From the IMG/VR virus record IMGVR_UViG_2671180849_000011: a DNA stretch of 13,205 bases. One strand, written 5' to 3'. The notes under the pieces are model-generated. The model was not told where the DNA came from, did no database searches, and was given only the letters and a program-made list of their open reading frames with translations. This stretch comes from a virus. Its lineage: Duplodnaviria; Heunggongvirae; Uroviricota; Caudoviricetes. Below are positions 4,147 through 10,181 of this stretch, piece after piece (within the stretch, counting starts at the first letter, position 1; each line of letters starts with the position of its first letter). The position numbers and the translations under genes are program-made.

Positions 4147-4293
4147 TTAATAAGGGATGTCAGAATCATTTTCTTCATCTGCTGGATCTTCAGCTAACCA
4201 ACCACAATATTCTTCCCAATATGAAAAATGTTGTGATAGTTCATCTTCAAAATATTTTTCCTTTTCCAGGTAATAATCAAAATCGCCATACAT
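4147..4293 (-). CDS. small highly acidic aromatic-rich protein (48 aa), not in ORF track
   Basis: ATG 4293 with SD AAGGAAG at 6-nt spacing, stop TAA 4147-4149; translation MYGDFDYYLEKEKYFEDELSQHFSYWEEYCGWLAEDPADEENDSDIPY has 16 D/E versus 2 K and no R; fills the gap between two called genes on the same strand. Confidence 0.35.
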   Translation of the reverse strand: MYGDFDYYLEKEKYFEDELSQHFSYWEEYCGWLAEDPADEENDSDIPY

Positions 4294-4334: not shown

Positions 4335-5231
4335 TTATTTAAACTCTAAAATGCCTTTTTTATTTTTTCTAACATTTCTCCACAATATTTCGGGATAATC
4401 TCCGCAGGTTTTATCTAACAATATTTCGAATCCCATCCCAATAAGCTTATTTGCAAAAATAAAAACAGGTCTGGTTAAATGCCAGTATTCTTCCGGTTTC
4501 CAGATTTCACCCTCTATTTTCCCTTTATGTTGGCTTACCTCTTCTGCGGTGTAAAAATCCTCCTGAATCTTTGACAAAAGGATCGGGCGACGTTTGTTTA
4601 AATCTTTGTATTTGCTTTCCCACAGTGATCGCATTATGCCTTTAGCCTCACTCTCACCCAGGACAATCCAGCCCCCATCGGTTACATCTTTCACAGGACG
4701 GCCCCGGCGTGGCTTGTCACTAACAGCGTTAATTTGAGGCGCTTTAGTGTCTTGGGTAGGCAATTGCACCACCTTAGCCTTTTTAGCTTGCTGTGTGGCT
4801 TGTTTTGGGGCTTCTTGCGGGTGTTTCTCTTCACTACCTGCATTGCTCATAGGTTGTATTCCTTGAGCGTCACACATTTTGCAGATTTGAGAAGGAGTAA
4901 TTAACAGTTTGTAATGATTAGATTTGCCTTTACTTTTAATTACTGAAATAAGCCCGGCATTTTCCAGAGTTTTGATAGATTCAATGATTTTTCTATCACT
5001 CACACCACATATTTTTGCTAAGGTCTGCTCTGAGATAAATATTTCTTGCCCGTTTAAATGAAAACCTGCCATTTTTCCATAGATTGTTACCTCTATCAGG
5101 TCTAAATTAAATCGCTCTTTTGTTTTTCCAGTCTTTTTATTAGCAATTGTTGTTGCTACTGGTTTATCAAAAGTATACTGAATGAGGCGTTCGAAATGGG
5201 GATTAAAAACCTCCCCGTAATTACTTGCCAT
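4335..5231 (-). CDS. winged-helix DNA-binding protein (298 aa), replication-initiator-like or antirepressor-like
   Basis: ATG at 5231 preceded by GGGGGA; N-terminal wHTH-like segment ISEQTLAKICGVSDRKIIESIKTLENAGLISV; central P/Q/K/A-rich linker with KPRRGRPVK (AT-hook-like); architecture recalls lambda O-type initiators (from memory, unverified). Confidence 0.5.
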   Translation of the reverse strand: MASNYGEVFNPHFERLIQYTFDKPVATTIANKKTGKTKERFNLDLIEVTIYGKMAGFHLNGQEIFISEQTLAKICGVSDRKIIESIKTLENAGLISVIKSKGKSNHYKLLITPSQICKMCDAQGIQPMSNAGSEEKHPQEAPKQATQQAKKAKVVQLPTQDTKAPQINAVSDKPRRGRPVKDVTDGGWIVLGESEAKGIMRSLWESKYKDLNKRRPILLSKIQEDFYTAEEVSQHKGKIEGEIWKPEEYWHLTRPVFIFANKLIGMGFEILLDKTCGDYPEILWRNVRKNKKGILEFK

Positions 5232-5244
5232 AGTTCCCCCACAG

Positions 5245-5460
5245 TTATTTATTAATGTTGTTGGTGTATTTAGCCAGCTCACGCTCAAGGCGGAGACGAT
5301 TCAGTTCTAAAATTGCCGCTTCAATGTGTGGATATTCTCCTTTGTGTTTACGAATAAATGCATAAACGGAAGTTTTTCGAAAGTTACCTTTAAGCACGTT
5401 CTCGACGATTTCGTCAGTAGTCCAGTTTACCAGCTGGCTTATCGGTCCGGTTTTAGCCAT
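5245..5460 (-). CDS. hypothetical small protein (71 aa)
   Basis: ATG 5460 preceded by SD AGGAGA at 7-nt spacing; stop 13 nt before the next start; basic, possibly DNA-binding. Confidence 0.5.
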   Translation of the reverse strand: MAKTGPISQLVNWTTDEIVENVLKGNFRKTSVYAFIRKHKGEYPHIEAAILELNRLRLERELAKYTNNINK

Positions 5461-5592
5461 GATTCAATCTCCTGTTAGCTCACTAACCTGTGCGATATAT
5501 GGTTAAAAAGAAACGGGAACTTAAGACAAGCCCCCGCATTTTTGTTTAAGGAAATTCACTATGATGAGAATTACCCTATGATTTATATTTTA

Positions 5593-5742
5593 TCAGCTAT
5601 TTGCGAGATTGTCAACAATCTTTTTGTATTTATCTATCATTTTTTCTTCAAGGTTGTCGATTGCAGCTACTCCGGCTATGTAGGCAACACCGCACCACAG
5701 TACAGCCAGGTTGATGATCGCTATAGCGTCGCTCAGTTCCAC
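5593..5742 (-). CDS. small single-pass membrane protein (49 aa, GTG start), not in ORF track
   Basis: GTG 5742 preceded by GGAGG at 5-nt spacing; translation VELSDAIAIINLAVLWCGVAYIAGVAAIDNLEEKMIDKYKKIVDNLANS is one hydrophobic helix plus charged tail; stop TGA 5593-5595. Confidence 0.3.
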   Translation of the reverse strand: MELSDAIAIINLAVLWCGVAYIAGVAAIDNLEEKMIDKYKKIVDNLANS

Positions 5743-5786
5743 GTTGACCTCCGGATCTGTTTCTCCCACTATCTATAATCTTATCA

Positions 5787-5808
5787 TATTGACAACCAAT
5801 TGTCAATA
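5787..5808. promoter_or_regulatory. palindromic operator overlapping candidate leftward promoter
   Basis: Perfect inverted repeat TTGACAA (5789-5795) - CCAA - TTGTCAA (5800-5806), arms extend to 9 bp; on the - strand TTGACA, 17-bp spacer, TAAGAT; a third half-site TTGTCAAT at 5929-5936. Confidence 0.4.
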
Positions 5809-6424
5809 GGAATCATTATCATTTAGGCGAGCTATAGGTACAAACAAGTCCACAGCAAAGGGGTAAGCATTATTAATGGCCCCTACCGTGTCAAAACCAA
5901 AGTCACTTATAGCATTTATGCAATAAGATTGTCAATGGCCCACAAGGGAGGGAGAGCACTTTTTGCCTTAAGCGCTCTAAAATCGATTCTAACGCGATTT
6001 AGAGGTCAGGTAATGCAATTGCACTACTCACACAAGTTAATGCAGCCAGAAGGCCATTTAGGGGCCTTATTTTCGATTTCTGAGCGTCCTGTTACGTGTG
6101 TGCATACACGGGCGCGCGGAATCCCTCGCTTAAACGGTCCGGATTGGAAACAGAAGTCTCTTATCCGGACTCCACATTATATAGCTACGTGCTATCGCAC
6201 TACGCTACCCACACACAGGCCGACGTAGTCGGTTTAGCTGTATAGCTAAAGTCACAGAGTGACCCACACACAGATTGCCTAAAGAGTCGCTAATGCTCTT
6301 TAGGCTTTCATTTGTGGGTTAAGCTTTTCCCTTAGAAAACCTTCCCCACTCTCTGATCCCTCCCCATTCCCCTTGGGGGGTTAGGGGGGGATCTGTTGTG
6401 TGATCTATTAATTTATCTATTAGA

Positions 6425-6645
6425 GTGAGAAATTTTCAGGGGTACTAGTGAGAAATCTTCGGTAGTAGTGGTGAGAAATTCTCAGGGGTGTGGGTAGGTA
6501 TGGTGGTTAAGTAGTGAGAAATCTTCAGTAGTTAGAGGCTGTGTATCATGGGGGCAATGACTGCAAAACGGGAAAGCATGACTGTATAAACACACAGGTG
6601 TGAAAATTCTTCACAGGTTAGCGACACCGGAAAAATCTTCAGTAG
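6425..6645. repeat. iteron-like direct repeats, six copies of about 18 bp (consensus GTGAGAAATCTTCAG(G/T)(G/A)G)
   Basis: Copies at 6425-6442, 6448-6465, 6471-6488 (exact 23-bp phasing), 6514-6531, 6598-6617 (degenerate), 6630-6645; preceded by G-run GGGGGGTTAGGGGGGG 6375-6390. Confidence 0.6.
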
Positions 6646-6655
6646 TGTCTATCTG

Positions 6656-6753
6656 CATATGTGGGAAATACACCCTTATTGACCTATTTTGACTAGCAAA
6701 CCTCTCTCTTCTCTCTTTGCTCTGATTTCCTCTCATGTGTGGGAAATATGCAT
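6656..6753. repeat. second repeat family CAT(A/G)TGTGGGAAATA (two copies) flanking a CT-rich tract
   Basis: catatgtgggaaata at 6656-6670 and catgtgtgggaaata at 6734-6748; pyrimidine-rich tract 6701-6734; a related copy aaaatgtgggatata near 7047-7061. Confidence 0.45.
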
Positions 6754-7488
6754 ACCAACACCCGTTGATTTTATCAATAGCTATGTTGACCGGGCATCAT
6801 AAGTGTGGCCCCTGAGGCAGTCCATCCTTCCCTCACACAGGACAATGAATATATAAAGAACATGAAAGACTGTTCACACCAACACGCCGATAAATTGCCT
6901 GAAGAGGCTTACATGGGGTTATTGTTGTGTGGGTAATGGTGATCATGCTAACAGATTATGTTAATCAGATGTAAATTCCGATTTTGTGGTCTGCATGGAG
7001 CAAACTATACTGGTTAAATGATCAGGGGAATGACTACAAAACAATCAAAAATGTGGGATATAGCCATCTACACGTCTAATGTGCTGTGTGGGGTGTTAGT
7101 GCATGCTTACATGTAAGTCATTGATTTGAAGGGTTGGGAAAATTGCATTTAACATAATAGATCTTATCTACACTAATAAAGCGAACTACAAAATCTGATT
7201 TAAAAATCATGATCAGTGGGCACAGAATTTACGTACAGCCACCTGAATAAATAATGTGCACAACATACAGCAAAGCTTAAGAATTAACATAATAGCAACG
7301 TGGTCAGTAGTGGTGTGATATTTGAGAATTGTTAGAAGAAAAAAGGGAGGTGGGGGAGCGCCTGCCTGGCACCTCAGACGAGTTACCCATAAGCTCAAAT
7401 ACCGCTAATGGATATTTCTGACACCCACACCCAAGACCGCTTTCAGCACATAGCCATATAGCCACACAGGACCGCACAGGATGCAATT

Positions 7489-7698
7489 GTGATAACAAAA
7501 AATGGGGGTGTAATAGGGTAGGTCACCTTTCATCAAAATCACTTCTACGACGTTTCCAGAGTGATAACAAGAAAACAGGCCTCTAAGATTATCTGTGCCT
7601 CGTTTTTAGCTTTTTGTGTGGTTACCAGGTGAAGAGGAAATGTTAAAAACTGTTCATTTTATGCACAAACTAGTCAGGGTGATACCACAAAATGAGGT
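7489..7698. repeat. third repeat family GTGATA(A/C)CA-A-rich-GG, three copies
   Basis: gtgataacaaaaaatggggg 7489-7508, gtgataacaagaaaacagg 7561-7579, gtgataccacaaaatgagg 7679-7697; DnaA-box-like TTATGCACA at 7659-7667. Confidence 0.45.
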
Positions 7699-7887
7699 GT
7701 AAGAAATCCAGCTGCAGATAATCTTGCAGCCAGATTTTGCAGTTTTTTAGGGTATGTTAAATTTGACAAAAATAGAGAAAAGGCTTATTAAGCTAACTTA
7801 TTGATTTTATTAGTATTACGAAAAAGGGTTACACCCTCTCTCTTACTCTGTCAACCGGGCGGTTGTGGCATAAAACGGATTAAATCA

Positions 7888-7946
7888 ATAAATAGGCATT
7901 AAATAGGGGATAAATAGGGGTTAATTGAGGGATAAATAAAAAGGGG
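7888..7946. repeat. five tandem 11-bp phased repeats (A/T)TAAAT(A/T)GGGG
   Basis: Units start at 7888, 7899, 7910, 7921, 7932 (exact 11-bp period); last unit merges into the terminator stem. Confidence 0.55.
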
Positions 7947-7959
7947 CCGTGATGGCCCC
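7931..7959 (-). terminator. rho-independent terminator of the membrane-protein gene
   Basis: Stem GGGGCC (7943-7948) / GGCCCC (7954-7959), loop GTGAT; - strand tail TTTTTATTTATC (complement of 7931-7942); 8 nt past stop codon 7968-7970. Confidence 0.6.
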
Positions 7960-7967
7960 CTGGTAGG

Positions 7968-8498
7968 TCAGAACAGTTTTTTGCTTTTTCTCCAACTAAC
8001 GCCGCGTTTGCCTATGCTCAGCCAGCCGCCAGCGAATCGGGTACCTGCGGTAACACTAGCTCCCCTGGTACCTACATGTGCATAAATACCTGCTCCACTG
8101 CTACCACCGCTTCTACGGCTTTTTCCGCCATCGATATCAAGGAGAACACAGATCGCATTCCACCAAAAGCCGATCACCCATATTGCAAATGCTAAGCCTA
8201 AAACGCCCCAGGTGACCGCCCACCCTTCCAGACTAGTGGGGAAGTAGAAAGCATTGAGAACAGCATTTATAGGGCGGATCAGGAGAAAATCTATAAAACC
8301 AGTATCCACATGAAACGGTCCATTGCCGAACTTGCTACTGCCAATAAATAAGGTAGCAGGGTAAAAGAAGATAGCCATTGCCCAAGGGCCAATAAGCAGG
8401 ATAGTAGCCCCGAACTGTGCGGCCTCCTTAAAGAACATTTTTACTATTGCTTTAAAAAGCTTTTTGTTTTCTGATTCTTTATCTTTCTGAAATAACAT
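7968..8498 (-). CDS. polytopic membrane protein (176 aa) with Gly/Ser/Arg-rich C-terminal tail
   Basis: ATG 8498 preceded by AAGGGG; about four hydrophobic segments; own terminator; position and type fit a superinfection-exclusion or abortive-infection moron (inference). Confidence 0.6.
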   Translation of the reverse strand: MLFQKDKESENKKLFKAIVKMFFKEAAQFGATILLIGPWAMAIFFYPATLFIGSSKFGNGPFHVDTGFIDFLLIRPINAVLNAFYFPTSLEGWAVTWGVLGLAFAIWVIGFWWNAICVLLDIDGGKSRRSGGSSGAGIYAHVGTRGASVTAGTRFAGGWLSIGKRGVSWRKSKKLF

Positions 8499-9069: not shown

Positions 9070-9336
9070 GTTTGTTCGGTTGGGGTGCTATCAATGATCC
9101 CCTTCCTTGATTCGAACTATAGCCGGGTAAATCACTGGAAAACATTGATATTGATCAAAAGATATCTATCACGAATGAAAAAGTTATGATAGATGATAGG
9201 AGTCGCATAGCTGCGACCTTGGCTGTGTGCCAAGCCTGCAAAGCAGGTCAGGGATGAGGTGACGTATTGATGGGATTGATAGAGGTCTGAAAATACCGTT
9301 ACCACGCTAATTATTAGAATTTATATAATCAGGATG

Positions 9337-9845: not shown

Positions 9846-10181
9846 ATGAGAGATATGACTATCCGCACACGCGGACACATCATTTCATACGCCGCAGATG
9901 AGCAATTTAGTATTCGCGACGTTGAAGTTAAAAACAAAGTTAAGACTGAGATTCCGGCTGGCACTGTTGTTGTGGTGACTGAGGCTGGCGAGGTTGAGAC
10001 CTTCGTTAAAGCAACGCACACCGGTAAAACTCCGCTGCTGGTTGTAGAACGTGCTGAAGTTGGTGATTCCTTTATCGTTGTTGCGAACAAAGGTTGCTAC
10101 ATCAATCCGGCCTATGTGGACAAAGACGGCTTAGCCGCTGTTGTTGCTGCCAGCAATGGCGATTTGCGTGTTGCACAATAA
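9846..10181 (+). CDS. head decoration-like protein (111 aa), assignment by position
   Basis: ATG 9846 preceded by AGGTGA at 5-nt spacing; strongly biased high-expression-type codons; immediately upstream of the capsid gene, as gpD is in lambda; no sequence similarity to lambda gpD recognised. Confidence 0.5.
   Translation: MRDMTIRTRGHIISYAADEQFSIRDVEVKNKVKTEIPAGTVVVVTEAGEVETFVKATHTGKTPLLVVERAEVGDSFIVVANKGCYINPAYVDKDGLAAVVAASNGDLRVAQ

Follow-up and report, generated by a model that had tools for sequence, protein, structure and literature searches.

The locus and its features

The 13,205-nucleotide stretch of viral DNA studied here, IMG/VR record IMGVR_UViG_2671180849_000011 (Caudoviricetes), is referred to in its entirety as the window and matches circular Escherichia coli "plasmids" of 13.2–13.7 kb end to end at an identity of 90–95%. 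On its minus strand, between positions 5808 and 5504, the window carries a compact leftward cassette: a promoter (P1); a micro-open reading frame (micro-ORF) of 49 codons; a second promoter (P2) embedded in the distal end of this micro-ORF; and a leader closed by an intrinsic terminator. The cassette is conserved and probably heads the leftward replication/early operon of this circular E. coli plasmid of ~13 kb, an element with structural genes similar to those of rV5-like phages. Conservation was judged on 36 related loci, gathered from complete plasmids, metagenomes, and contigs of Logan, NCBI, and ENA and comprising 24 unique sequences; alignment columns were scored across the 24 unique relatives, and presence or absence was counted over the 36 loci. 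The relatives have diverged by only 5–20%, and such plasmids form a small set, of which nine complete relatives (L001–L009) were compared.

A first-pass annotation made from the letters alone had described the interval 5593–5808 as a small membrane gene under a palindromic operator and promoter, with a third half-site further upstream. The sequence features it listed—the inverted repeat, the −35 and −10 elements, GGAGG five nucleotides before GTG, the 49-residue reading frame, and the third half-site—all lie where it placed them. P2 and the terminator, which stand between the peptide gene and the downstream genes, were missed. The cassette consists of the following elements:

5801–5806, minus strand: −35 hexamer of P1, TTGACA; 6/6 columns invariant
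5790–5795, minus strand: second hexamer, located in the P1 spacer; TTGTCA in the window, TTGACA in 34/36 loci
5778–5786, minus strand: extended −10 of P1, TGaTAAGAT, with TG at 5786–5785 and TAAGAT at 5783–5778; 9/9 columns invariant
5748–5752, minus strand: Shine–Dalgarno sequence GGAGG, 5 nt before the start codon; kept in all relatives, one of them with TGAGG
5593–5742, minus strand: micro-ORF of 49 codons plus stop, translation V/MELSDAIAIINLAVLWCGVAYIAGVAAIDNLEEKMIDKYKKIVDNLANS; GTG at 5742, TGA at 5595–5593
5616–5657, minus strand: A/T-rich stretch before the −35 of P2, resembling an UP element; codons 29–42 of the micro-ORF
5587–5615, minus strand: P2, composed of TTGACA (5615–5610), 17 nt, and TGaTAAAAT (5595–5587); 11/12 consensus positions plus TG
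5547–5578, minus strand: stem-loop SL1 in the leader of the P2 transcript, from RNA folding
5504–5537, minus strand: intrinsic terminator/attenuator, an 11-bp hairpin (5537–5513) followed by UUUCUUUUU, from terminator scan and folding

The micro-ORF and its peptide

As judged by its pattern of variation, the micro-ORF is a genuine protein-coding gene under purifying selection, because its frame is intact, its variable sites are in excess at third codon positions, and its ratio of nonsynonymous to synonymous divergence (pN/pS) is low. Frame and length of 49 codons are retained in 36/36 loci, and the start codon, always in the same position, is GTG in 14 loci and ATG in the other 22. Counted by codon position, the 41 variable sites are distributed as 10/7/24 (binomial p = 8e-4), and those within the first 90 nt as 5/4/20 (p = 9e-5). 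The mean pN/pS amounts to 0.21, with the most divergent pairs reaching a pS of 0.42–0.47 versus a pN of 0.10–0.13. The PGAP pipeline places a coding sequence of 150 nt here in 9/9 complete relatives (for example WP_157794903.1, hypothetical protein). The 49-residue membrane gene proposed in the first pass is thus borne out as a real gene. A plus-strand ORF (5542–5778) overlaps it and is open in 23/24 unique sequences. Since its variation falls on its own first codon position and since L007 carries a stop in its frame, this ORF is, on the pattern of substitutions, not coding; the first-pass annotation had already found it implausible in composition.

The peptide is predicted to form a single-pass membrane helix. 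It features an acidic N-terminal tail of five residues, a hydrophobic segment of 23 residues (residues 6–28), and a charged C-terminal tail; the Kyte–Doolittle hydropathy has a 19-residue maximum of 2.18, and AlphaFold2 yields one continuous helix spanning residues 2–48 with a predicted local distance difference test score (pLDDT) of 81. Among the relatives, the hydrophobic helix is preserved via conservative V/I/A/T exchanges. Because all four lysines are located C-terminal to the hydrophobic helix and the N-terminal tail is acidic, the peptide would insert into the inner membrane with its N terminus out and its C terminus in.

Sequence families offer no counterpart: Pfam, PHROGs, NCBIfam, PADLOC, and the PDB sequences contain no match to the peptide, and a DUF2680 match at E = 0.031, below threshold, was discarded. 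A word-indexed search of 5.8 billion clusters found the peptide only in this element family, plus a chimeric protein, P0008, that shares its C terminus. The exhaustive profile search of 1.84 billion representative proteins returned only its own family, the same P0008, and two giant repeat proteins. The peptide adds a well-supported member to the small membrane proteins of mobile elements.

A holin-like role, as suggested in the first pass, is unlikely: the gene adjoins replication genes and not a lysis cassette, its neighbors being a gene of 71 amino acids (71-aa gene) and the replication initiator, and the peptide features one hydrophobic segment and one start codon in place of a dual start or two or more transmembrane domains. 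Both P1 and the ribosome-binding site seem strong and show no sign of repression; a lethal toxin or a holin is therefore less likely than an accessory membrane factor that the cell tolerates, one that might serve maintenance, exclusion, or the interaction with a helper phage.

Promoters P1 and P2

In P1, TTGACA and TAAGAT are separated by 17 nt, and the promoter scan finds 10/12 consensus positions. The −35 and the extended −10 are invariant in 15/15 columns, versus 58/122 columns across the upstream region (p = 5e-6). These consensus elements and their invariance support a leftward sigma-70-type promoter driving the 49-codon gene, and in this respect the first-pass reading stands. From spacing alone, its transcription start is predicted near 5772–5769. 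Scans with the exact patterns of P1 and P2 gave no occurrence in GTDB representative genomes, none in IMG/VR, and four in JGI/ENA metagenomes; all four carry the same P1 and micro-ORF, and three of them lie on contigs of 13.9–15.5 kb, the size of the element.

P2 lies within the last 10 codons of the micro-ORF and is the best promoter match across the interval 5200–8100, matching the consensus more closely than P1 (11/12 vs 10/12 positions). Its −10 hexamer TAAAAT occupies 5592–5587, the TG of its extended −10 comes from the TGA stop codon, and its start is predicted near 5580. The −35 is invariant in 6/6 columns and the −10 in 8/9 (L032 has TATAAT), compared with 6/14 columns of the spacer. 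Likewise, 32/34 columns of the A/T-rich stretch are invariant over the 34 nt tested (5616–5649). Third codon positions are invariant at 13/15 sites in codons 31–45 versus 9/29 in codons 2–30 (Fisher p = 0.001). As judged by this constraint, the last third of the micro-ORF also supplies P2 with its upstream region, −35, and extended −10—a clear case of a coding sequence whose final third also serves as a strong promoter and whose stop codon forms the TG of an extended −10. The −35 of P2 is, in addition, embedded in a small palindrome of its own, AGATTGT-TG-ACAATCT (5606–5621), which is perfect only in the window and in L006.

Leader and terminator

Folding of the 83-nt P2 transcript yields two stem-loops with an energy of −22.2 kcal/mol (z = −4.0 versus shuffled sequences). 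The second of these is the terminator hairpin, which has an 11-bp stem and a 3-nt loop and is located ~45 nt past the predicted P2 start. Two types of leader occur among the relatives. In all type-A (window-like) leaders, the hairpin is retained despite small indels. In type B, which is the commonest type and is represented by the L004 clade, sequences without relation to those of the window stand in place of the leader, the following small gene, and the initiator; this leader also ends in a hairpin and U-run, of different sequence (GCUGGGUUACAUCCCAGC-UUCUUUUUU), ahead of the next gene. Many minimum-free-energy folds allow pairing between the Shine–Dalgarno sequence of the 71-aa gene, AGGAGAUU, and the 3′ arm of SL1, AAUUUCCU.

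The stretch from the terminator to the ATG at 5460 shows no promoter, so the 71-aa gene and the initiator would be expressed by read-through; since the downstream genes would need this read-through, the terminator would act as an attenuator. Rfam searches of the whole window, and with laxer filters of 5430–5960, gave chance-level matches only. An L20_leader match was rejected at 21.8 bits versus a gathering score of 58.7, and the C4/CI covariance model produced no match on the 531-nt region even at E ≤ 10.

Proposed mechanism

In the mechanism proposed for the cassette, transcription would begin at the predicted P1 start, and ~28 nt on, the Shine–Dalgarno sequence and GTG (ATG in most relatives) would open the 49-codon gene. 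P1 would yield an mRNA of ~265 nt for the peptide and P2 a leader RNA of ~75 nt, both ending mostly at the terminator. The replication genes would then be expressed by read-through only, with the attenuator keeping initiator levels low. The first-pass annotation had regarded the peptide as the first product of the leftward operon. In terms of gene order this holds, as the micro-ORF is the first coding sequence to the left of a 2.2-kb ORF-poor region; the connection to the following genes is looser than had been supposed, with P2 and the terminator intervening before the next gene.

Several points weigh against this proposal. The promoter scan is overall not enriched (9 sites vs 6.8 ± 2.9 in shuffled sequences), so that the case for P1 and P2 rests on conservation among the relatives. 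Compensatory base changes are seen in 0/10 pairs of the type-A hairpin alleles. The second hexamer in the P1 spacer, conserved at 5/6 columns while 4/5 bases between the hexamers vary, is not placed to serve as a −35 for any −10-like hexamer and is unaccounted for by the model; it could be a regulator site, in which case P1 may not be constitutive. Both transcription starts, the efficiency of the terminator, and translation of the micro-ORF are predictions from sequence, and the membrane topology and the argument for a nonlethal peptide are likewise derived by reasoning alone.

Should copy number or the reaction to a helper phage prove to be under the control of the peptide or the leader RNA, the cassette is the place to look; otherwise the locus amounts to an ordinary promoter region plus one orphan small gene. 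It serves as a map for experiments on a compact element, with one peptide gene, one attenuator, and two promoters charted ahead of the replication genes.

The palindrome and alternative explanations

Two features upstream of the micro-ORF had suggested an autoregulated operator in the first pass:

5787–5808, no strand: perfect inverted repeat with 9-bp arms, TATTGACAA-CCAA-TTGTCAATA; specific to the lineage
5906–5935, minus strand: promoter-like site P0, read from the sequence, with TTGACA (5935–5930), 18 nt, and TGcTATAAG

According to this reading, the palindrome is the operator for a dimeric helix-turn-helix (HTH) repressor encoded by the element, the heptamer at 5929–5936 is an auxiliary half-site, and P1 and the operon are autoregulated. 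The inverted repeat is indeed perfect—a core TTGACAA-CCAA-TTGTCAA at 5789–5806 with arms extending to 9 bp—and overlaps the core of P1, that is its −35 and spacer. The −35 of P2 also lies within a small palindrome, the element encodes several small HTH proteins, and the heptamer TTGTCAA/TTGACAA is locally enriched, with 7 copies versus 2.7 expected in the window, a count reached in 1/200 shuffles. Conservation speaks against an operator, however. The palindrome is perfect in only 2/36 loci, the window and L006; the other 34 carry the direct repeat TTGACA-N5-TTGACA, which a symmetric dimer would not read alike, and a single A-to-T change in the second hexamer creates the inverted repeat of the window. 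The smaller palindrome at P2 is perfect in the same two loci only. Repeats of such quality are also common by chance: a perfect inverted repeat with 9-bp arms and a loop of at most 6 nt occurs in 31% of Markov-1 simulations of the window, inverted repeats with 7-bp arms number 6 versus 7.1 in shuffles, and the palindrome pattern with up to three mismatches occurs once versus 1.08 expected. Four of the seven heptamers lie within 5609–5935 and are all accounted for, three being −35 hexamers of tandem leftward promoter-like sites and the fourth, the second arm of the palindrome, a one-base variant of such a hexamer. The "third half-site" TTGTCAAT at 5929–5936 is part of P0, whose −10 lacks the final T and is hence unlisted by the promoter scan; it is present in 30/36 loci and absent from 6/36, and P0 sits in a mosaic segment missing from L002, L003, L008, and L009, that is from 4/9 complete relatives. 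Finally, the protein identity table contains no HTH allele unique to the two palindrome bearers and hence no covariation. Since the palindrome is not conserved, is at chance level, and has no HTH allele that covaries with it, the claim of an operator with autoregulation finds no support and is very unlikely to be correct. Judged by its distribution, the palindrome is a lineage-specific accident and not a conserved operator. Two regulator boxes considered for 5789–5820 were also rejected: a Fur box at 5802–5820 (best 14/19) equals the maxima of shuffled sequences (13–15), and the best Pho box (14/18) lies away from the locus at 9175–9192 and within the shuffled maxima (13–15).

The remaining alternatives concern the function of the peptide and of the leader RNA. 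That the ORF is untranslated or functionless, its conservation stemming from promoter constraint at the DNA level and from the closeness of the relatives, would agree with the constraint on its 3′ third, with the lack of homologs elsewhere among the 1.84 billion representative proteins, and with the antisense frame being open nearly as often. This is highly improbable, as the 5/4/20 pattern is found in the first 90 nt, away from P2, pN/pS is 0.21, the most divergent pairs have a pS of 0.46 versus a pN of 0.11–0.13, GTG and ATG alternate as start codon at one position with the Shine–Dalgarno sequence kept, and the exchanges in the hydrophobic helix are conservative. If the peptide is functional, it could be a type I toxin that kills plasmid-free segregants in the manner of Hok, is held in check by a small RNA, and thereby stabilizes a plasmid without recognizable partition genes. 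Its 49 residues, single hydrophobic helix, polar tail, and location on a plasmid fit this description; no par or toxin–antitoxin (TA) genes are recognized among the ORFs of the element, and the adjoining P2 is predicted to give an abundant short RNA. Yet neither a toxin match in Pfam, NCBIfam, or PADLOC nor an antitoxin RNA in Rfam was found, and the profile search leads back to its own family. On the plus strand, only weak promoter-like sites (9/12) and no terminator for an antisense RNA are present. The P2 leader was considered as an antitoxin acting in trans on the peptide mRNA and was rejected, its complementarity to the 5′ region of the peptide gene being no better than that of shuffled sequences (−27.3 vs −28.4 ± 4.3 kcal/mol). 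Known type I toxins (hok/sok, tisB/istR, ldr/rdl) are heavily repressed, an architecture unlike the short 28-nt 5′ untranslated region, consensus promoter, and GGAGG found here. The toxin-like role proposed in the first pass is therefore unlikely, lacking both an antisense partner and a family match.

A regulatory function of the ~75-nt P2 RNA (5580 to ~5505), with the peptide being secondary, is somewhat easier to entertain and still improbable as the principal explanation. The RNA would act like CI of P4 or C4 of P1, or as part of a switch resembling pR′-6S-tR′, and gate the replication and tail genes depending on a helper phage. P2 is near consensus and invariant, the leader folds with a z of −4.0, the terminator is kept across unrelated leader alleles, the SL1 3′ arm can pair with the Shine–Dalgarno sequence of the 71-aa gene, and the downstream operon includes a tape measure gene. 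Against this, neither C4/CI nor any other Rfam family matches, covariation is absent, no Q-like or N-like antiterminator is recognized, and a leader attenuator needs no function in trans. This alternative differs from the P1–peptide–P2–attenuator model in emphasis only and is otherwise compatible with it. A bolder possibility, for which the odds are long, is that the cassette constitutes a constant regulatory block beside swapped initiators and forms the lifestyle switch of an undescribed family of satellites that are carried on plasmids and belong to virulent rV5-like phages: sensing or counteracting infection by a helper, or keeping other elements out, would be the task of the peptide; the P2 leader RNA, abundant and of sense orientation, or read-through of the terminator induced by the helper, would gate replication and tail genes; and TTGACA-N5-TTGACA would bind a regulator encoded by the helper or by the element.

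Comparison with known systems

The closest working analogy to the cassette is the arrangement of the copB and PrepA tandem promoters plus leader attenuator, an analogy that implies no homology. In R1 and other IncFII plasmids, transcription of a small first gene, copB, starts at a constitutive promoter upstream of it and continues to the replication gene; a second promoter, PrepA, lies at the distal end of the small gene, and the initiator is kept low by leader control. The likeness lies in the tandem promoters, with the second one at the distal end of a small first gene. Differences are that CopB is a soluble DNA-binding repressor of PrepA, whereas the peptide described here is a hydrophobic single helix; that R1 uses the antisense RNA CopA and the coupled leader peptide tap, whereas here no antisense gene is detectable and a leader terminator takes this place; and that there is no sequence similarity.

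The attenuators of pT181 and of pIP501/pAMbeta1, as well as the pR′-6S RNA-tR′ region of phage lambda, feature a strong promoter followed within 60–100 nt by a hairpin and U-run terminator, ahead of the controlled genes, and have a short terminated RNA as their default product—all of which is shared by P2 and its leader. In pT181 and pIP501, an antisense RNA induces termination, and in lambda, Q loaded at qut suppresses it; in contrast, an equivalent of either the antisense promoter or Q/qut was not found here.

With the type I toxins (Hok/Gef, Ldr, TisB, Ibs, ShoB, Zor) and with AcrZ and MgrB, the peptide has in common a length of <60 residues, one transmembrane helix, and a short polar tail, and both the type I toxins and the small membrane proteins of E. 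coli are often found on mobile elements. It differs from the toxins by the absence of a family match and of a partner RNA and by its apparently unrepressed promoter and ribosome-binding site; its N-terminal tail is acidic, whereas that of Hok is basic. CI RNA of P4 and C4 RNA of P1/P7 are short structured RNAs derived from the 5′ leader of an operon with replication or antirepressor functions, and their hosts are, as here, extrachromosomal or satellite elements of enterobacteria. However, the Rfam C4 family does not match the leader, a processing signal of the RNase P type is not evident, and repeated complementary target sites were not demonstrated.

Downstream genes and module exchange

Two genes follow the terminator in the leftward direction:

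5245–5473, minus strand: 71-aa gene (5460–5245) with Shine–Dalgarno sequence AGGAGA (5473–5468); annotated in relatives
4335–5231, minus strand: replication initiator, HTH_36, O-like/DnaD-like; probable ATG at 5231

The 71-aa gene is the first gene past the terminator and has no family match. The longest ORF of the initiator runs to 5288 (317 codons, 4335–5288, minus strand), and its product matches Pfam HTH_36 at 1.5e-7 and PHROG replication-initiation families down to 1.2e-9. Among L001–L009, the initiator alleles are 29–99% identical to the window protein and those of the 71-aa gene 40–100%, with recombination breakpoints just past the −10 of P2 and near 5831–5839. The structural genes and the P1–peptide–P2 cassette stay at least 90% identical. 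A second micro-ORF of 48 codons lies between the initiator and a 161-aa HTH gene (4147–4293, minus strand); its product, annotated as WP_001682500.1, is 100% identical in 7/9 complete relatives and has no family match.

The chimeric protein P0008, 82 aa long, has in common with the peptide only the latter's C-terminal 27 residues and is encoded on a 38-kb Logan contig, L010 (ERR13318355). The first 10 kb of this contig are 98.6% identical to the rV5-like Vequintavirus phage nom; past a 7-nt microhomology, TAACTGC, the contig follows the satellite-like E. coli plasmid pE275a_13 (NZ_CP035869.1) at an identity of 96%. With its N-terminal 68 residues, P0008 is a member of the phage family phrog_12604 (= nom_18), and the module at 10173–11583 of L010—distal micro-ORF, P2, leader, terminator, 71-aa gene, and N-terminal part of the initiator—has been fused in frame into this gene. 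BLASTP gives no alignment between the C terminus of the peptide and nom_18. The same phage/plasmid junction is found on a second contig (L011) from another sequencing run. This suggests genetic exchange between phage and plasmid family, an assembly artifact being the less likely explanation. No DNA match to the replication module exists among the GenBank phages. The 3′ third of the micro-ORF travels with the replication module, which fits its role as the promoter region of that module.

The element and its relatives

The element itself is the more unusual object in the window than the peptide and promoter locus. The window appears to be a complete circular element of ~13.2 kb with an O-like replication initiator and iteron-like repeats. 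Its leftward gene order is micro-ORF, 71-aa gene, initiator, small HTH genes, and tape measure gene. The records of the relatives annotate a tape measure protein, a major capsid protein, a phage baseplate protein, and several HTH proteins; in the window, a tape measure protein, a major capsid protein, and a tail-completion/Neck1-like protein are encoded. Terminase, portal, integrase, and partition genes are not recognizable in the element, and neither is an endolysin gene. The GenBank phages contain no DNA match to the window. At the protein level, the closest GenBank phage relatives of three proteins belong to the virulent rV5-like Vequintavirinae, at identities of 26% for the tape measure protein, 24.5% for the capsid protein, and 51% for a 270-aa protein. 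The latter has its best matches in the unnamed PHROG family phrog_5197 and in an rV5-like protein, which is named "tail tube initiator" in one phage record. The element thus looks like a plasmid-borne satellite of rV5-like phages, and one that is undescribed: full-text literature searches did not find a description of this element family. One of the complete relatives, NZ_CP043822.1 (L009), is a "plasmid" of 39,610 bp with three places matching the window, very nearly triple the length of one unit; the record represents either a trimer or a concatemer assembled as one molecule.

The ORF-poor region

To the right of the cassette, the ~2.2 kb at 5807–7967 contain no ORF of more than 99 codons and no annotated gene in the nine relatives; there is also no Rfam match, no tRNA, and no DNA match in GenBank phages for this region. 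Its left part is mosaic among the relatives. Five iteron-like copies of the 21-mer TAGTGAGAAATCTTCAGTAGT are located at 6423–6646, the first three pairs being spaced by 23 bp; the array is a probable replication origin or initiator-binding site. Short CCCACACACAGG/TGTGTGGG motifs are scattered across 6205–7624. At the far end (7888–7931 and 7941–7961), overlapping copies of ATAAATAGGGG, spaced by 11 bp, directly adjoin a strong minus-strand terminator that ends the gene of a 176-aa membrane protein.

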